Below, in pieces: positions 2 to 24,472 of a stretch of DNA of 35,123 nucleotides. This DNA comes from Promethearchaeota archaeon. Its GTDB lineage: Archaea > Asgardarchaeota > Lokiarchaeia > Sigyniarchaeales > SOKP01. A model generated the notes under the pieces. That model did not search any database. It was not told the origin of the DNA and saw only the letters and a list, made by a program, of their open reading frames with translations. Both the position numbers and the translations under genes were made by a program. Position 1 is the first letter of the stretch, and every line of letters starts with the position of its first letter. The stretch spans positions 1 through 35,123 of the forward strand of contig JAEOTS010000037.1 in assembly GCA_016839745.1 (NCBI GenBank), in the 5' to 3' direction.

Positions 2-829
2 GTAAGGTTTTTGAAGAAGTTAAACATCGAGTTAGCTTCATTTAAATATCTTACTACCACTCATCACCATTTTGACCATAACGGAGGGCTATGGCAACTC
101 TATGAGCTGTTAAAGGAACATAATTCAAAAGTTAAAATCGTAACCAACGAGAAGACTAAAGAATTACTCAACGATTACAAAGATCATTTGGCTCGTGGAA
201 AGCGAACGTATGGAAATTTAACTGGAATCATGAAACCAATTGAAGAGAGCGCTTTCAAAATTATCACCCCTAGTACCAACTTTAATAGCAACTCAAATAG
301 ACTTGATTTTATTGATTCCTTTTCAATCGATGGTTCAGAAGTGAAATTTGGAATTTTAAAAACTCCCGGACACACTCCTGATCATCAATGTCCTATTTTT
401 GTTAAAGATGATAACCTTGACTTTATCCATCTTGGAGAAAGCGTTGGAACGATTTACCATTCTTCAGAATTAGTGACAATACCTACATCAATGCCCACTT
501 ATTATAATCACGAGCAATATATGAACACTTTACAAAACCTTAAGAATCTCTCTCCTTCTAAAGCTGGTTTTGGTCATTTTGGAGTCGTTAGTGGTAAAGA
601 AAATTTCCGAACTCTTCTTTTAGAGCACGAGTCTTTCATGAATGAATTTAGAGAAGCGATCATCAAGTTCTATAGTGAGAAACCGGAAACGAGATATGTT
701 TTCGAACATGTAATGCCAATGATAATCCCCAGAACCGATTTATCCTTTGGAAATGATTCAGTCTTTAATGGAATTGCGTTAGGTATAGTCTATGGTATGA
801 TGATGGACTTAGGTTATCGTAAAGATTGA
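2..829 (+). CDS. MBL-fold metallo-hydrolase (5'-truncated by window edge)
   Basis: THHHFDHNGG (HxHxDH), TPGHTPDH and GFGHFG motifs. The frame is open from position 2, so the true start lies upstream of the window. Ends in TGA (827-829). Confidence 0.85.
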   Translation, partial: VRFLKKLNIELASFKYLTTTHHHFDHNGGLWQLYELLKEHNSKVKIVTNEKTKELLNDYKDHLARGKRTYGNLTGIMKPIEESAFKIITPSTNFNSNSNRLDFIDSFSIDGSEVKFGILKTPGHTPDHQCPIFVKDDNLDFIHLGESVGTIYHSSELVTIPTSMPTYYNHEQYMNTLQNLKNLSPSKAGFGHFGVVSGKENFRTLLLEHESFMNEFREAIIKFYSEKPETRYVFEHVMPMIIPRTDLSFGNDSVFNGIALGIVYGMMMDLGYRKD

Positions 830-4734: not shown

Positions 4735-6450
4735 TTAAAATAATAATCTCGCTATAAATGAAAACCCACTTTGTGGTGTGGACATGGTAACTATAAGAAA
4801 GGTCAATAATAGCGCATTTATTATGGCTCCAACAATAATATTTCCCGTTTTTCTGTAGGCTACTATAGAAATCCCTGAAGTTAAAGTAAACATTAGTATT
4901 GAAATAGGAATAAAGGTTCCAAAGTAAAACAAGCTTCTCATGAGAACGGCGACCAGTAACAAATAAACCATGAAATATAAAAGTGGATAAATAGTGCCTA
5001 AAATGAGTACTTTAAAATTATTTTTGATGGAATCGGTGAATTTGTTTTGAATTATCACTTGAGTCAACAGATTCAGAATTAGAATTACAAAAAAACTAAT
5101 AACGAAGTAAATAGGTATCGTCCAAATTTTAGTTATCGAAGGAACAAATCCTAGATAGTTTAAACCAATTGATGCATACACAATTAAGTAAAGCATAATT
5201 GCTAAAACTAACCCTAATAGTAATTGTCTAAGAAAAGCATTTCTTCCCTTAAATGGCTCTATTAGTATCTTTTTGAAAGATAAACTGGTTTTCTTTCCTA
5301 TTCTCCAGAGTAAAATCATCAATCCAAAGGCTTGACCAAATAATAAAGTTACTACAAAAGCAGCGATTGCTAATGGCAATATTAGTAATAGGGGTATAAA
5401 TATAATTACGCCGGGAATACCGAGCACGATTGGATATAATATCGCTTTCATCGAAATACTTTTTATAGACATATCAGGCGTGTCGATGGTATAATATTGA
5501 AGTTCCTTATCCCTATCGCTTTTTGCTTTTAGAATTAATTTAGACAAAGGATCGATGGTTAAAAAGAAAAATCCAATCCCTCCAATCACTTGTATCAATA
5601 AAATTAACCCTCTTATTTTCACATAGTAAGTCTCATCTACGACGTCAATATCAAAGGAATTTATGGCCCAGTCTCTTGCTTCACGAATAAAATCCTCGTC
5701 CCAGGCAACTGTGAGGTGATTACTGTTATCATCTAAATAAATCATAGAAGCGTTTCCTTGTTGAAACGATCCGTACAATTTGTTTGTATCTACATTCGAA
5801 ACCGGGATTCCGACTCTAACTGCTAAACTTGCTTTAAGGTATGGTAGCTTAGCAACTTCGTCGAACAACGCTTGAATCATGAGCACATTTAATGGCTCAG
5901 CCATTGTACCAGTTCTAAGGCTGGAATTTAACCCAGTGCCAATTCCTATAAAACACTTAAATGATAGATCATCTTGAATAAGATATTGTCCTAATCCACC
6001 CATACTATACCCAATATAACCCAAGGCGTTCATGTCTATATCACCCCTAAGACTAAGTTCCTCTTTAATCGCAATTATATCTTTTGTTTTATTATCTGGT
6101 TCTACCATAGTGCTTTGTCCATGTCCTCTGAAATCGAATGGTACGGTAACAAATCCTGCTGCTGCTAACTCTAACGCGTACCCTTTTAACATTTCTTTGT
6201 TGACCATAACCCCATGTCCAATTATAATAGCTGGTTTGTTAAGTCCACCACTTACCGGTTCAAAAATGTTATAAGAAATAGTGACGCCATCACTCGTCTC
6301 AGTTGATAATCCATAAGTACTTTTTACGCTAAGGGGTGTTATAAAAATGAAAACCGTTCCAAGCGTAAAAATAGCGAGAAAAATGCATATAAATACGATT
6401 CTTTTTTTTGTTAGATTTAATGTATTCATAGTTCTATATTTAAATTCCAA
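4735..6450 (-). CDS. Membrane-anchored alpha/beta hydrolase with C-terminal multi-TM domain
   Basis: N-terminal TM, IIGHG, FDFRGHGQS and GYSMGG nucleophile elbow, then about 8 TM helices. Alternative start ATG 6429. Confidence 0.85.
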   Translation of the reverse strand: MEFKYRTMNTLNLTKKRIVFICIFLAIFTLGTVFIFITPLSVKSTYGLSTETSDGVTISYNIFEPVSGGLNKPAIIIGHGVMVNKEMLKGYALELAAAGFVTVPFDFRGHGQSTMVEPDNKTKDIIAIKEELSLRGDIDMNALGYIGYSMGGLGQYLIQDDLSFKCFIGIGTGLNSSLRTGTMAEPLNVLMIQALFDEVAKLPYLKASLAVRVGIPVSNVDTNKLYGSFQQGNASMIYLDDNSNHLTVAWDEDFIREARDWAINSFDIDVVDETYYVKIRGLILLIQVIGGIGFFFLTIDPLSKLILKAKSDRDKELQYYTIDTPDMSIKSISMKAILYPIVLGIPGVIIFIPLLLILPLAIAAFVVTLLFGQAFGLMILLWRIGKKTSLSFKKILIEPFKGRNAFLRQLLLGLVLAIMLYLIVYASIGLNYLGFVPSITKIWTIPIYFVISFFVILILNLLTQVIIQNKFTDSIKNNFKVLILGTIYPLLYFMVYLLLVAVLMRSLFYFGTFIPISILMFTLTSGISIVAYRKTGNIIVGAIINALLLTFLIVTMSTPQSGFSFIARLLF

Positions 6451-6615: not shown

Positions 6616-7926
6616 ATGTCGACTGAAGAAAAAGTTAGAAATCGATGGATTGTAGTAATAGGAGCAATATTAATTCAATTGGCTTTAGGGACGATTTATT
6701 CCTGGGGAACCATGACGGTATTTGTAAGTCCATATTTGAATTTAACTATGAATTTAGATCCAATCATCGTTAGAGAAGTTACGGTGTATATTTTCGGAGT
6801 TGGATTATTATCCTTTGCAATTACGATGATTTTTGCGGGTAAACTACAACAGAAGTACGGTCCTAAAAAAATTGCGATTTTGGGAGGGATATTAATTGGA
6901 ATCGGCTTAATTTTATCCGCATTTATGACTACTTTTATAGGCCTTTTAATTACTTATGGAATTATCTTTGGAGCAGGTATTGGGTTTGGTTATGTGTGTC
7001 CAATCGCTTCAGCGGGTAAATGGTTTCCAGATAAAAAAGGATTTATTAATGGAATTGCTGTTGCAGGGTTTGGTGCTGGTGCTTTCGTTTTTAATTACAT
7101 AATACAAGCATTAGCTAATCCAACAGGGTTATCAGACAAAGCTCCAAATTTTGTTGATGTAATTTCGCCGAATATTCCATTAATGTTCGTAATTTTAGGA
7201 ATTATTTATCTCGTTCTTGTTATAGGAGGAGCAATGACACTGAGCAATCCACCCGAGGGATGGAAACCTGATGGATGGACACCTCCTCCTCCTTCGGAAG
7301 AAAGTGGAATATCGGGTCTGGAGTTCGAACGAGCTAAAACAGTAAAATTACCCCAATTTTGGATGCTTTGGACGGCTTTCGCATTAAGTGCTATGTCCGG
7401 TTTAATGGTTATAGGATCATTTTCTGCATTTGCCAAAACCTATGCAGCCCCTGATGTATTCTTATATGTAATTGGTACCAGTGATTTCGTGTTAATTGGA
7501 AGTTTAGCAGCTCTATTCAACGGATTAGGCAGAATAGTTTGGGGGAAATTAGCAGATATGATAACCTATAAAAAATCTATGTTGTTAATGTTCACAACTC
7601 AAGCAATCCTTATGTTTATCTACTTCACAACAAATGGTAGCGAAATATATTTCTTAATCATAACTTGTGCAATCTTCTTCTGTTTTGGAGGTAATTTCAG
7701 CTTATTTCCAACGGCCACAGCTGATCTATTTGGATCAAAAAATTTAGGTCCAAACTATGGAATTGTTTTTACGGCTTACGGCGTAGCAGGATTTATTGGT
7801 GCTGTTGGTGTAAACTTATTTGTTAGCATTTTTGGAAGTTATCTGATACTATTTATAGTAATGGGAACTATGTCTGTCGGTTCAGCAATTTTAACTTTTA
7901 TAATAAAACCACCAAAACAAAGATAA
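6616..7926 (+). CDS. MFS transporter, oxalate:formate antiporter (OFA) family
   Basis: About 12 TM; LALGTIYSW, KWFPDKKGFINGIAVAGFG, NGLGRIVWGKLAD and FGSKNLGPNYG. Confidence 0.9.
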   Translation: MSTEEKVRNRWIVVIGAILIQLALGTIYSWGTMTVFVSPYLNLTMNLDPIIVREVTVYIFGVGLLSFAITMIFAGKLQQKYGPKKIAILGGILIGIGLILSAFMTTFIGLLITYGIIFGAGIGFGYVCPIASAGKWFPDKKGFINGIAVAGFGAGAFVFNYIIQALANPTGLSDKAPNFVDVISPNIPLMFVILGIIYLVLVIGGAMTLSNPPEGWKPDGWTPPPPSEESGISGLEFERAKTVKLPQFWMLWTAFALSAMSGLMVIGSFSAFAKTYAAPDVFLYVIGTSDFVLIGSLAALFNGLGRIVWGKLADMITYKKSMLLMFTTQAILMFIYFTTNGSEIYFLIITCAIFFCFGGNFSLFPTATADLFGSKNLGPNYGIVFTAYGVAGFIGAVGVNLFVSIFGSYLILFIVMGTMSVGSAILTFIIKPPKQR

Positions 7927-13332: not shown

Positions 13333-14646
13333 ATGTGGGTTAAAGGTTTAAAAATACACCGAGTAACTTCATGGTTAATCACTCTGCTTGCATTTATAAC
13401 TATCTTCTTAGGTTATGCCGTAACGAAGCGGTGGTTCCCATTTCATGAATTATTTCTATTTCTTCACTTAGCTACTGGTTGGATTTTTCCTGGATTATTA
13501 CTCGTACATTTTATGTTTTCAATTCTTTATTTGAACCTCACATGGAGTCGAATTAGAGCTGCCTTTAAGAGAGAAAATACCTCTAGTACTATCAGTTTAC
13601 GGTTAATTCAGAAAATAACGAAATGGGGTATTATTGTCATGGCGTCTCTAATAAGTTTTTCTGGACTATCGTATTACCCTTCTTTTAATGCTATTTTTGG
13701 CAATTTTCTACCATTTTCAATTCATCTAGATTTTGATATAATACTTTCCATATTTATGATCGTTCACGTTGGAATCGGTGCGACATTTTATTTTACTAGA
13801 AGAAGGATAAAACATTGGAGCGCTAATCTTTCTCTTGTATTTCTTATTTTTTCTTTAATACTCGTGACAATCTTTGTAGATCTTCCCTCCGGATTAGGAT
13901 CTCCTGGAGTTTATATTGGAGGAACTAAATATGAATTTGACCCAAATGAGGTTAATAGCGTTCGCCCAGACCTTTTTCAAAATGGATCCTTTTCCGTATA
14001 TGACATTCTTGTTCATCTTAATTCAACAGACCAAATCAGTTTAATTTCCCACTTCAATAGTAGTATGGATACTTACATAATTGACTCCTTAAATGGAAAT
14101 ACTGATTATTGGTGGTATCACATATATTATAGTGGTGGCGATATTGAAAAAAATGTGGTTAGGATGGACCATTATCCATGGAAACCAGGATCGAGGATTA
14201 TTATGTACCATGAAAGCGAATCGTACATTAACGCTGCTTTTTCGCTTTTTACTGAAGAAGTCTCCCGTTATGCTTACAATAATAACTCGATAATTATCCC
14301 AAGAGTTAATATAACTGGACACAGTTTTAGCGTAGAATTTTATAATGTAACCGTTGTTCCACATAATAAGAGAAATGAAACGTTTAAAAATGGTGTAATT
14401 ACAGCATTGGATGTGATAATGACTTTGGGAGACTTAGGAAGCATTACTTATAACCTTACTTGGTTTGAAAGTTTCAGAGGTGCTAGTTATGTTCACAGTT
14501 ATTTTGTAAGCAAAATAAATACTGACGAAACATCCGGGAGATGTGGTTTTCTTTACGATGTTAGCGGTTCCTTTATTTATCTATCTGCAGATGAAAGAAT
14601 TCTTACCTCTCCAGAATCTATTAATTTTTATTGGGGATGTTTATAA
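13333..14646 (+). CDS. Membrane protein: His-containing ~5-TM N-terminal domain plus extracytoplasmic domain with internal duplication
   Basis: TM helices carry His (IHRV, FLHL, LVHF, SIHL, IVHV). The soluble C-terminal part has two similar halves (FQNGSFSVYDILVHL / FKNGVITALDVIMTL) and many N-x-S/T sequons. Confidence 0.7.
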   Translation: MWVKGLKIHRVTSWLITLLAFITIFLGYAVTKRWFPFHELFLFLHLATGWIFPGLLLVHFMFSILYLNLTWSRIRAAFKRENTSSTISLRLIQKITKWGIIVMASLISFSGLSYYPSFNAIFGNFLPFSIHLDFDIILSIFMIVHVGIGATFYFTRRRIKHWSANLSLVFLIFSLILVTIFVDLPSGLGSPGVYIGGTKYEFDPNEVNSVRPDLFQNGSFSVYDILVHLNSTDQISLISHFNSSMDTYIIDSLNGNTDYWWYHIYYSGGDIEKNVVRMDHYPWKPGSRIIMYHESESYINAAFSLFTEEVSRYAYNNNSIIIPRVNITGHSFSVEFYNVTVVPHNKRNETFKNGVITALDVIMTLGDLGSITYNLTWFESFRGASYVHSYFVSKINTDETSGRCGFLYDVSGSFIYLSADERILTSPESINFYWGCL

Positions 14647-20760: not shown

Positions 20761-21900
20761 TTAAGTTTTTTCTAATTCCATTTGGCTAATCGCTTTACCA
20801 GACCTGAACGGTATATCATCTATGCTTTCACCGGCGCTATAATCAAACTTTTCCTTAAAGGAGTCGTTTAACGATTGGAAGTATAGTGATAGTGGAAGAT
20901 GTTGTGGACAGTTATTATCGCAATTTCCACATTCGACACAGCGGTCTGCGACATGGGCAATTCTTGTTAATTGATAGGATTCTTTATTGATGATCTTTTC
21001 TTTCCTCTTCTTCATTAGAATACAATCAACACAGTAACATACTGGACATCCTCTGATGCACATGTTGCACATAGTGCATGCTTGGAACCTCTCCAATTTT
21101 TCTTCCTGAGAAAGCTTGTCCCATTCTTCTAAATCCTTTGCTCTCTTTGCTATAGCTGCATCCTTAATGTTTTTAAGGACTTCGGATTGCTTAGTTTTCA
21201 TATCTTCAGGTAAAGGTTTTTTGTTGATCTTTGATTTTTCTACGAGATCTTCGCCTTTATCTGAATACACTTTAAGCACGATTTCGTCCGAATCAATAGG
21301 TAATACAAGATCACTAACGCTAATATCAGCTACAACAGGAACCTTCCTATTACAACGCGAACAGTTCTCTGCTATATCTAATCCAACCTCCTTGGTACTA
21401 CCATCTTCAAATTTAAGAATTAATCCTTTATCGCCAACTTTTTCTTTAACAACTTTAGTTAAATCAAGCCCTTCTACTTTCTTCAATTCGCGAGCGGCGT
21501 TTATTATCATCCCTCTATCCTCAAAGCCAACAACAAAGAGATTATCCATGTTAATCTGTCTAATCTTTGCTAACTCAATAATTCCACGCGTATCACAAGG
21601 ACGAGCGATAACTCCTACTTTTTCGTTTTTAGCCCCATCAACTGATTTGTGTAAGAATTTCGCAGCAGTATCCGTTCTCGCATACCCATATGCAATTAAA
21701 TTCGTTAAAGGAAAAGTAACAAAATCTTCTGGTTTTTCAACGAGTACTGGAGATACGGTAAACCTATCTACAGCCCCGGACTTCTTATCTACTTTTAACT
21801 TTGCTCCAATAATTTTGTCCACGATTTTTTCTTGCAAGAGCGTAGCTAATAGCTTAGGAAAATCCTCAATTTTAATTAAATATTCATCTAACGCATCCAT
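20761..21900 (-). CDS. FdhB/FrhB-family (F420 hydrogenase/dehydrogenase beta subunit-like) Fe-S flavoprotein, 379 aa
   Basis: KVGVIARPCD, ENCSRC, CTMCNMCIRGCPVCYC and RCVECGNCDNNCP. Start placed at ATG 21900 (MDALDEY) because the upstream extension is low-complexity and overlaps the SECIS. Confidence 0.85.
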   Translation of the reverse strand: MDALDEYLIKIEDFPKLLATLLQEKIVDKIIGAKLKVDKKSGAVDRFTVSPVLVEKPEDFVTFPLTNLIAYGYARTDTAAKFLHKSVDGAKNEKVGVIARPCDTRGIIELAKIRQINMDNLFVVGFEDRGMIINAARELKKVEGLDLTKVVKEKVGDKGLILKFEDGSTKEVGLDIAENCSRCNRKVPVVADISVSDLVLPIDSDEIVLKVYSDKGEDLVEKSKINKKPLPEDMKTKQSEVLKNIKDAAIAKRAKDLEEWDKLSQEEKLERFQACTMCNMCIRGCPVCYCVDCILMKKRKEKIINKESYQLTRIAHVADRCVECGNCDNNCPQHLPLSLYFQSLNDSFKEKFDYSAGESIDDIPFRSGKAISQMELEKT

Positions 21901-21988
21901 GTTATTCCAACTCAAAATAGTAAATTTATTTTCTTGTTTTTGATTTAATTTTTTACAACTTTTTCTTTTATTTTTTAATAATTTATTT

Positions 21989-22063
21989 AATGTGTTATAT
22001 GGTGCTCCCATTTCTTCAACTGAGCTCTCATTTTTTTAACTCAGCTTCATTAGCTAACACATT
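21989..22063 (-). promoter_or_regulatory. Eukaryote-like SECIS element (selenocysteine insertion sequence) 3' of mvhD
   Basis: Minus-strand RNA: AAUGUGUUA-GCUA-AUGAA-GCUGAGUU-AAAAAAAUGAG-AGCUCAGU-UGAA-GAAAUGGGAGCACCAUA-UAACACAUU. It has a 9-bp helix I, an AUGA (22050-22047)/UGA (22018-22016) core, an 8-bp helix II and an A-run at the 5' side of the apical loop. Confidence 0.88.
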
Positions 22064-22497
22064 TATTTTTTAGAGGAGTCTTTATTTTTTTTATTTAACG
22101 GGCTCGGTCCAAGTTTCCGTATTTCTTCATCAAAAGCAGTTGCTACTTCCCGATATTTCGAACCTTCTGCTGAACTACAGTATTCCATCTTTAATCTTTT
22201 TGGGTCAAGTCCAATGGTTTTAACTACTTCTTTTAGATATGCAATTGATCTATGGGCAAAATAGTTGCCTTTTTCATAATCGCATTCTCCAGGATATCAT
22301 CCAACAATAATTATACCGTCAGCGCCTCTCCCAAACCCTCTCATAATTACATCCGCACCAACCCTTCCTGTGCATGGAACTAAAACGGTTCTTAAAGATG
22401 TGGGGTATTGAGCTCTAATAGTTCCCGCCATATCAGCTGCACCATAGCCTCATTTTAAACATAAAAAAGATAGAATTTTAATATCGTTGTTACTCAT
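22063..22497 (-). CDS. mvhD: MvhD/VhuD hydrogenase delta ([2Fe-2S]) subunit; selenoprotein with 2 Sec (U16, U67), 144 aa
   Basis: Manual translation: MSNNDIKILSFLCLKUGYGAADMAGTIRAQYPTSLRTVLVPCTGRV...GADGIIIVGUYPGECDYEKGN...RKLGPSPLNKKNKDSSKK*. TGA at 22450-22452 and 22297-22299 replace the Cys of the CxxC and GCxxGxC motifs. GAGGT RBS upstream; TAA stop. Confidence 0.93.
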
Positions 22498-22510: not shown

Positions 22511-24472
22511 TTAATCCTCAATTGGCAATAATTCGTCAATATAGCTTACATATTGAACATCTTTATAATGCGCTAATTCTATCGCTTTAGAAGGACAAAT
22601 TGCAGTGCATATTCCACAACCTCTGCAACTTATTACATCTACAACAATCGTTCCTTCATCATTAATAGAAATCGCTTTGTATGGACAAGCTTCAATACAT
22701 TTATAGCATTTTGCACATCTTTCGTCTATTGGTTGGGCACGTATTAATTCAATAACATACTCTTCTCGTCCCATTGGAATGCCTGCTGATGATGCTGCTC
22801 CCTTAGCTTGACTTACTGTTAGTTCAATTGATTTTTGACCTTGACATGAACCGGCTAAGTATACGCCTGGGACCTTCGTCTTGATTGGTTCTAAACGTGG
22901 ATGAACTTCTTTTAGGAAACCATCTGGTGATTTCTCAATATTCATTATAGAAGCAATTTCGTTTGTACCCCGCGATGGTAATGATGCCGATGACAAAACA
23001 ACCATATCAACTTCTTGTTTTACGATTGTATCAGTCCCAACTGGTTCAAATTCAACGGTAAGATTCTTTGTTAGCGGATCTTCTTCTATTTTTCCAATCA
23101 TCCCTTTAACAAAAAGAATTCCAGCATCCCTAGCTCTTCTATAATATTCTTCATACATCTTCCCAGCACATCTCATATCTATATAACATACCGTAATTTC
23201 TGAATCGGGATATTCTGAGATTATAAGTTTGGAATTCTTTACGGATAAATTACAACACACGACACTACAATATTCATTCTTTTTTAAATCTCTTGAACCT
23301 ACGCAGTTTATGAATAATATTTTCTTTGGACGTTTTCTATCTGAGGGGCGTACCAAATGACCGAACGTAGGGCCATTTGGAGCAAGAATCCTTTCTAATT
23401 GGATCTGTGTAATAACATTATCATATTTTCCGTACCCATAATCGTCTTCTTGATATAAGTCCCATCCTGTTGCTACAATTATTGTTCCCGCTTCAAGCTC
23501 TATAATTTCGTCTTGTTGACTAAAGTCAATTGCCTCCAAATCACAAGATTCGACACATGCAAAACATTCTACACACGATTCTCTTACAATATCATAAACT
23601 GCCGGAACTGCTTGAGCAAATGCGATATCGATACACTTACGAGCTGAAAGATTTTCATCGAAATAATTAGGAACATATATCGGGCATACTTCCGTACATG
23701 CTCCACAACCAGTACATTCGCTTTCAATGACAAATCGAGCTTTTCTTTTTACTTGGACTCTAAAGTTACCTATATATCCTTCGACTTTTTCTACTTCACT
23801 ATAGGTAAGCATTTCAATATTTGGATGACGATCAGCTTCAAGCATCTTTGGTCCGAGAATTCATATCGAACAATCGTCTGTGGGGAATGTTCGATCTAAT
23901 TGAGACATACGACCACCGATTGTTGTCTTCTTTTCAACTAAATACACTTTATATCCTGCATCTCCCAAATCAATTGCAGCACTTAAACCAGCAATTCCTC
24001 CGCCAATAACCAAACATGTAGGTTTTACATCAACTGTTTTTGTAGGTATCTCTTCTAAAAATTGCGATCTTGAAATCCCTGCTTTCACCAATTCTATTGC
24101 TTTAAGTGTAGCATCATCTCTTACTTCCATTGCTTGATGAACATAACTACAATGTTCTCTAATGTTTACAAATTCCAAATATCTCTGTGGCAATCCTGCT
24201 TCATTTAAAATAGCATGAAATACTGGTTCATGTGTTATTGGAGTTCAAGCAGCTAAGATAATTCTGTCAAAGCTTTTTTCCTCAATTTGTTCTTTAATAA
24301 ATTCAGCGCCTCCAGACGTACACAGATTTAAATACTCATAAGCGTAAACATCATCAAGTTTATCAATTTCTTCTACAATTTTAGGCACATCTAAAATACC
24401 CCCAATATTAACTCCTCATCTACATATAAATGCTCCGATTTTGTGTTTACTATTGGTCTGTTCTTCAGACAA
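22511..24472 (-). CDS. hdrA: Heterodisulfide reductase subunit A; selenoprotein with 3 Sec (U19, U76, U204), 653 aa
   Basis: One continuous frame from TTG 24472 (AGGTGG RBS) to TAA 22511, interrupted only by TGA at 24416-24418 (IGAFICRUGVNIGG), 24245-24247 (RIILAAUTP) and 23861-23863 (TFPTDDCSIUILGPKM). Contains VIGGGIAG FAD motif, CVGSRD...YCSVVCC and several CxxCxxCxxxC ferredoxin motifs. Joins track ORFs 23861..24193 and 22511..23845. Confidence 0.95.

Follow-up and report, generated by a model that had tools for sequence, protein, structure and literature searches.

In eukaryotic SECIS elements, the upper helix places the AAR motif about 11–12 bp or more from the core. The closest described system to the element treated here is the lokiSECIS, which has been defined by an AUGA before a 9-bp stem and a GA after it, with an 11-nt loop in which A predominates among the first five bases and the final base is an ultraconserved G, in most cases following an A (Mariotti 2016, PMC4989117). 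Such elements lie close behind the stop codon, and HdrA-VhuD tandems carry a single element behind VhuD (PMC4989117). A later survey of >400 Asgard genomes listed 1224 eSECIS-like structures and described hdrA and frhD as sharing one of them (Huang 2024, PMC11227280). The element and its sharing between hdrA and mvhD are therefore already published, in 2016 and 2024 (PMC4989117, PMC11227280). Here, we compare one such locus with these systems and consider the part of the element that lies below its core.

Fold and identity of the element behind mvhD

The window, meaning the whole stretch of DNA that we analysed, comprises 35,123 nt and is contig C185 of a 3.5-Mb assembly that is 89% complete. 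A previous interpretation from the letters of this DNA (the sequence-only reading) had placed a eukaryote-type SECIS element directly at the mvhD stop codon. Indeed, RNAfold of positions 22063..21989 gave a single dominant structure (MFE -20.2 kcal/mol, z -3.85) that none of 200 dinucleotide shuffles equalled in stability, so that the element is real; the plus strand of the same region reached a z-score of -1.53 only. From 5' to 3', the element runs through helix I (AAUGUGUUA), GCUA, AUGA, helix II (AGCUGAGUU) and the loop AAAAAAAUGAG and returns through AGCUCAGUU, GA, AGAA, AUGG-GAGCA-CCAU and a single A to UAACACAUU (Table 1). Helix I comprises 9 bp and opens with the A that also ends the mvhD stop codon; 12 nt separate this stop from the AUGA. 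The AUGA (22050..22047) and the GA (22017..22016, both on the minus strand) are able to form the tandem G.A pairs that had been proposed, and the A-rich apical loop was likewise recovered. The number of base pairs in helix II had to be corrected from eight to nine, two G.U pairs included, although the helix is still shorter than its eukaryotic counterpart. As for the internal loop of the sequence-only reading, its 3' side contains a third hairpin of 4 bp.

Table 1. Positions of the element, its parts and the neighbouring genes in the window.
Feature	Position	Strand	Basis
Whole element (very probably a Loki-type SECIS), 75 nt	21989..22063	-	Fold; covariance model R1; core covariance model R2; 80/80 orthologous loci
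Helix I, 5' arm AAUGUGUUA	22055..22063	-	Pairs with 21997..21989
Helix I, 3' arm UAACACAUU	21989..21997	-	Fold and pairing in orthologues
Predicted k-turn, bulged strand CU / AAU / GA	22047..22053	-	Pairing register in 101 elements; UGA invariant in 77 orthologues
Helix II, 5' strand AGCUGAGUU	22038..22046	-	9 bp with 22026..22018
Apical loop AAAAAAAUGAG, 11 nt, A-rich start, AG end	22027..22037	-	Sequence; fits published loop description
Helix II, 3' strand AGCUCAGUU	22018..22026	-	9 bp with 5' strand
Predicted k-turn, non-bulged strand: GA (sheared-pair partners), AG (short C helix)	22014..22017	-	A55 and G57 invariant; register
Third (side) hairpin AUGG-GAGCA-CCAU, 4 bp, on non-bulged strand	21999..22011	-	MFE fold; orthologues
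hdrA, 656 codons, stop UAA	22511..24481	-	ORF with TGA read as U; PDB HdrA 9sfi_A, 687 bits
hdrA, three in-frame UGA (predicted Sec) codons	24418..24416, 24247..24245, 23863..23861	-	
mvhD/vhuD, 144 codons, stop UAA at 22065..22063	22063..22497	-	Translation; Pfam FlpD, 5.9e-42
mvhD, two in-frame UGA (predicted Sec) codons	22452..22450, 22299..22297	-	
frhB/fdhB-like gene, likely true start AUG 21900..21898	20761..21900	-	Pfam FrhB_FdhB_C; synteny

The element scored 103 bits with the covariance model R1 and 45.5 bits with the core model R2, and a strict sequence pattern occurred once in the window against 0.05 expected occurrences. Neither model detected a second SECIS element in the window. 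A weak R1 match at 7098..7202 on the plus strand (19 bits, E 0.09) was rejected as a SECIS because it lies inside an MFS-transporter ORF without UGA. With Rfam, the whole window gave no match at gathering score, and at E<=10 the surroundings of the element (21700..22400) yielded only chance matches to snoR30, MIR478 and SAM-SAH, none of them on the element.

We find it very probable that this is a Loki-type (Asgard 'eSECIS-like type I') SECIS, one element common to hdrA and mvhD. The AUGA stands directly 5' and the GA (for which AA is also allowed) directly 3' of a 9-bp stem with an 11-nt apical loop; the first five bases of AAAAAAAUGAG are A-rich and its final G follows an A; the stem shows compensatory changes (8/9 pairs); a single element lies behind VhuD, near the stop codon of a gene with UGA at Cys positions; and the host is an Asgard archaeon equipped for Sec use by tRNASec, PSTK, SepSecS, EFsec and SPS, of which PSTK and EFsec fall under strict cut-offs. 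Core, position, single element for both genes, multi-Sec HdrA and lokiarchaeal host are all shared with the published lokiSECIS, from which the core does not differ. In both, the loop opens with five or more A's and finishes with AG. The sequence-only reading was thus right to connect the element with those reported for Lokiarchaeota.

Its label of a eukaryote-type SECIS is supported by the core and the A motif, with the qualification that the element is no member of the eukaryotic family. Like the eukaryotic SECIS (RF00031), the element combines an AUGA/GA quartet with an unpaired AA(R) in the apical loop. Unlike it, our element has an upper helix of 9 bp, a length fixed across its family, against about 11–12 bp or more, and a third hairpin that fills the 3' side of the 'internal loop'; it is also intercistronic in an operon, in a genome where no SBP2 was found. 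Moreover, the Rfam model SECIS_1 gave no match at E<=10 in 21700..22400, and its best score in the genome was 19.7 bits, at an unrelated place and against a cut-off of 35. Since SECIS_1 does not match, the upper helix has only 9 bp and a third hairpin is present, the element is eukaryote-like and stands outside the eukaryotic SECIS family. The distinction from the usual methanogen SECIS was borne out as well. The Methanococcales/Methanopyrus type (GAA_A bulge) shares with our element the 3' UTR location, the HdrA and VhuD families, a kink-turn-like motif and, in the published VhuD version, even an AUGA, but it has neither the GAA/A bulge nor the G-C clamps.

Conservation among relatives and further elements in the genome

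An MvhD scan of species-representative genomes returned 80 loci with 60–91% protein identity. Nearly all of them are labelled Promethearchaeota or Promethearchaeia MAGs, the Loki-type Asgard phylum, in line with the Asgard origin that had been suggested. One contig with an Asgard hdrA-mvhD-SECIS cassette (L062, DATKTW010000168.1) belongs to a MAG labelled 'Candidatus Nanopelagicaceae bacterium', which is probably a binning error. Every one of the 80 relatives has two in-frame TGAs in mvhD and the element at the same place, 15–25 nt behind the mvhD stop. The sequence-only reading had made its case depend on conservation of the core in orthologous loci, and the core is kept: UGA...A is invariant, and both AUGA and GA occur in 79/80 loci. 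The strict pattern is present in 72 of the 80 loci, the remaining eight deviating by a bulge of 1 nt in the stem or by UUGA in the core.

For conservation and covariation we used a MAFFT alignment of 77 orthologues, from which the divergent loci L064, L072, L074 and L078 were left out because MAFFT misaligned them; these were compared by eye and with the covariance model instead. Invariant in the 77 orthologues are UGA, A36-A38 of the loop, G44, A45, A55 of the GA, and G57. Over this alignment, 89.9% of the cells are paired, as compared with 27–48% when the partners are slid. In helix I, about 81% of the cells are paired. The corresponding value for helix II is 94.5%, with compensatory changes at 8/9 pairs, and these helix II values were reached by 0/500 shuffles, so the covariation anticipated for Asgard mvhD 3' regions is indeed there. 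The side hairpin is paired in 99.7% and nearly invariant within the hdrA-mvhD class, and its loop tolerates 1-nt insertions, which points to a constraint on the RNA and not on coding. In the four divergent loci, helix I is swapped whole for UUCCGAU/AUCGGAA and the side-hairpin stem for CCUA/UGGG.

The region of the element is intergenic and has only 27% G+C, as would suit an AT-rich spacer in which a hairpin arose by chance or serves as a transcription terminator. Such a reading is refuted by the conservation and covariation, and we put its probability close to nil: the fold has the z-score given above, the unpaired nucleotides are invariant even though MvhD is down to 60% identical, and downstream of the element there is no oligo-U tract but A-rich sequence.

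The Loki-type SECIS is not confined to this operon. When both the pairing and the A-rich loop were required, a motif scan gave 12 elements in the genome and none in the reversed genome, and the 12 elements have the same stem (9 bp) and loop (11 nt) lengths. When the A-rich loop was disregarded, 26 pattern matches were found in the genome and 26 in its reversal, and these are accordingly ascribed to chance. Frames with in-frame UGA precede 12/12 of the elements and encode two PrxL, four MvhD/FlpD-like proteins, a VhuU-like C terminus and small Cys-rich proteins. With 150 candidates scored per genome, the core covariance model found matches in each of the three further genomes that belong to the same taxonomic family as the window, and none in 27 genomes that represent 17 other families of the phylum.

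Several further observations were made alongside. With the core-only covariance model, a 13th SECIS was seen in this genome (C20:43463-43502, plus strand), behind an FlpD/MvhD-like frame with two UGAs; the fixed-length pattern had missed it because its loop has 10 nt. Another element, at about 29700-30247 of C157 (plus strand), stands behind a frame with Gly-Cys-UGA-UGA (tandem Sec). Two elements, on C37 (~250-478, plus strand) and C116 (~14300-14540, minus strand), follow very small frames, one of which encodes a 64-aa hydrophobic protein with GGGU-PKPC and the other a Cys-rich, zinc-ribbon-like protein of 80 aa whose frame holds four or five UGAs. It is possible that these small frames are unlisted small selenoproteins. 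Among the relatives, R1 detected a second SECIS on the opposite strand, ~1.3 kb downstream, in three of the divergent loci (L064:4218-4308, L072:4219-4309 and L078:4273-4365; 38–47 bits), which implies a convergent selenoprotein gene beside the divergent hdrA-mvhD paralogue. Lastly, MvhD of L075, L076 and L085 has an insertion of 8–10 residues directly before the first Sec (CW-NEALETRVTQ-KU, at about locus position 2530), and in L085 the insertion holds an in-frame stop.

A predicted k-turn and a third hairpin

To describe the core, we considered the pairing register of 101 elements. The pair -1b:-1n, that is, the base two positions before AUGA with the base after GA, is a standard pair in 101/101 elements (U:A 63, G:C 25, U:G 10, C:G 2, A:U 1), and the next pair outward, -2b:-2n, is formed in 92 of them. 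This register leaves a bulge of 3 nt (A/G/U-A-U), which in the window reads AAU, with its AU being the AU of AUGA. Helix II often opens with a non-Watson-Crick pair in the 101 elements. From these sequence patterns, the SECIS core is predicted to be a textbook k-turn, made up of a 3-nt bulge, sheared G.A/A.G pairs in tandem, and a C helix of 2 bp (CU/AG).

The third hairpin recurs beyond the hdrA-mvhD class. Between 9 and 11 of the 12 elements of the genome have a side hairpin of unrelated sequence at the same place. We also inspected 16 elements found with a core-only model that is blind to the flanks, namely 15 from the three other genomes of the same family and the 13th of this genome: 14 of the 16 fold with the hairpin and an enclosing helix I, and the other two have the hairpin available. 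Among the 12 paralogues, two-sided changes occur at every one of the 22 pairs in the three helices (helix I 9/9), in an alignment that was fitted to the model. Taken as predicted secondary structure, the k-turn would form a three-way junction together with helix I and the side hairpin, in a manner resembling a k-junction.

A k-junction is a k-turn whose non-bulged strand bears an additional helix, as known from the TPP riboswitch and DUF-3268 (PMC4005666, PMC10573300). The predicted secondary structure of our element has in common with it the 3-nt bulge, the G.A/A.G pairs in tandem and, on the non-bulged strand, a hairpin that comes after a short connector, but differs in that the 2-bp C helix separates the k-turn from the junction. 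It is conceivable, though we hold it only tentatively and would sooner bet against it, that the Loki-type SECIS is in general a k-turn in a three-way junction whose third hairpin is a functional part of the signal, and not a two-helix hairpin of the eukaryotic style. The third hairpin could shield the k-turn from abundant L7Ae, or it could offer a docking surface for an archaeal SECIS-binding factor or for EFsec. The three-way state would then be one that eukaryotic SECIS elements later lost. In their main texts, neither Mariotti 2016 (PMC4989117) nor Huang 2024 (PMC11227280) mentions the 2-bp C helix, the side hairpin or a three-way junction, and a 2026 review gives no description of the part of the element below the core. 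We found no literature that ties SECIS to k-junction topology; Huang 2024 (PMC11227280) cites a k-junction paper for GA_AA pairing only. The three-way k-turn architecture is therefore the only part of the present description that may be new.

A k-turn may also serve as a general protein-binding site, for instance for L7Ae, and could in that capacity control translation or stability of the frhB-like gene without any relation to Sec. The likely frhB-like start does follow 88 nt after the element, the sequence UGAUGA...CUGA seen in many orthologues resembles a box C/D motif, and translational control by archaeal L7Ae via k-turns is known (as cited in PMC11881835). Against this, frames containing UGA precede all 12 elements of the genome while the genes downstream are unrelated, a plain k-turn needs neither an A-rich loop nor a fixed 9-bp/11-nt geometry, and in known k-junctions L7Ae could not induce folding where the non-bulged strand carried a helix: A. 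fulgidus L7Ae failed to fold two of them (PMC10573300). We accord this explanation very little credence as an account of the element, which may nevertheless have a secondary regulatory role next to that of a SECIS.

The start of the frhB-like gene has a bearing on the side hairpin as well. In the ORF track, the frhB-like ORF has 416 aa and begins at AUG 22011, which is the 5' strand of the SECIS side hairpin, so that it extends over 21898..22011 (minus strand) ahead of the start given in Table 1. This AUG was rejected as the start because the frame closes within 50 codons in 75/75 relatives tested and because 1-nt indels are tolerated in the hairpin loop. The frhB-like gene is syntenic in 79/80 loci, and homology begins mostly at residues 28–38 of the long ORF.

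Five UGA codons, two cistrons and the Sec machinery

Upstream of the element, hdrA and mvhD are separated by a gap of 13 nt, and the frhB/fdhB-like gene and a polyferredoxin gene lie on its 3' side. In HdrA, Pfam recognises flavoprotein and ferredoxin domains. In the alignment with the solved HdrA chain 9sfi_A, the three HdrA UGAs fall, in order, on two Cys residues and on X (Sec), and both MvhD UGAs align to Cys of the solved MvhD 9sw2_D. Measured from the AUGA, the five codons are 249, 402, 1813, 2197 and 2368 nt away. In this genome, mvhD escapes gene callers and hdrA is split by them.

The genome also has the machinery for Sec. SepSecS (322 bits) is encoded at C150:5822-6766 (plus strand), an EFsec-like gene (229 bits) at C150:1367-2257 (minus strand), and a PSTK-like gene scored 173 bits; the latter two are under the strict NCBIfam equivalog cut-off. 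There are two SelD genes, each with one in-frame TGA. ARAGORN and Rfam reported no tRNA-Sec in the genome, their sub-threshold matches being tRNAs for Gly, Pro, Leu and Ser and other intron-bearing tRNAs. It was only by blastn with the tRNA-Sec of a sister genome (59.9 bits) that we found the gene at C150:5449-5596 (plus strand), between the EFsec-like and SepSecS genes. The two programs missed it because it contains two introns, one of 28 nt in the anticodon loop (5490-5517) and one of 31 nt in the T-loop (5553-5583). When spliced in silico, the tRNA is called as tRNA-SeC(tca), with an acceptor stem of 9 bp. In the published Loki tRNAsec, only the 31-nt T-loop intron is described. No protein of the size or type of SBP2 with an L7Ae domain was found in this 89%-complete genome, in which only two ORFs, of 134 and 127 aa, have an L7Ae domain; published searches found no archaeal SBP2 either (PMC4989117, PMC11881835). 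With five UGAs at Cys/Sec positions and the Sec machinery at hand, the locus supports Sec decoding as the sequence-only reading had maintained.

Judged from these sequence features, the element is predicted to bring about Sec insertion at the upstream UGAs. In the mechanism that we envisage, the folded k-turn junction would recruit archaeal EFsec-GTP-Sec-tRNASec, directly or via an adaptor, and the recruited complex would be delivered to ribosomes at any upstream UGA of the same polycistronic mRNA. One element would in this way serve two cistrons and five UGAs, and the mvhD stop would be too near the element for recoding. The lack of oligo-U after the element fits read-through into the frhB-like gene. 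A lokiarchaeal SECIS was non-functional in Methanococcus maripaludis (PMC11881835), an outcome that counts against the predicted function but also fits a lineage-specific factor.

That the three UGAs of hdrA would use this element is supported by conservation and by our finding no other element. The opposing view is that the element is a SECIS for mvhD only and that the hdrA UGAs are recoded by another signal, such as a local in-frame structure, or are not Sec. These codons are indeed 1.8–2.4 kb away, past a stop and a start codon, and to serve them the element would have to act across cistrons. The narrow hdrA-mvhD gap speaks against this view, as does the fact that R1 and R2 gave no second element in the window. 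The hdrA UGAs moreover occupy Cys/Sec positions that are conserved, among them the canonical Sec site of methanococcal HdrA; all 80 relatives end hdrA with a codon other than UGA (TAA 57, TAG 23, TGA 0), and published analyses favour a shared element (PMC4989117). We therefore regard restriction to mvhD as highly unlikely and retain a single element shared by both genes. The mvhD stop is TGA in 5/80 relatives, and ~11% of the long frames in the genome end in TGA. Stop-codon usage is no more than suggestive of a minimal-distance rule, by which recoding would be restricted to UGAs at a sufficient distance from the SECIS, given that the relatives are not independent.

As an instance, the locus adds one hdrA-mvhD SECIS to a catalogue of >1200 Asgard elements. 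Archaeal EFsec has been reported not to bind the methanogen SECIS. For the factor that reads the archaeal SECIS, a conserved k-turn in a three-way junction would provide a defined 75-nt RNA bait and a concrete feature to mutate. The same architecture, if it is as predicted, would refine the account of a 'transition form' that links archaeal with eukaryotic SECIS elements.
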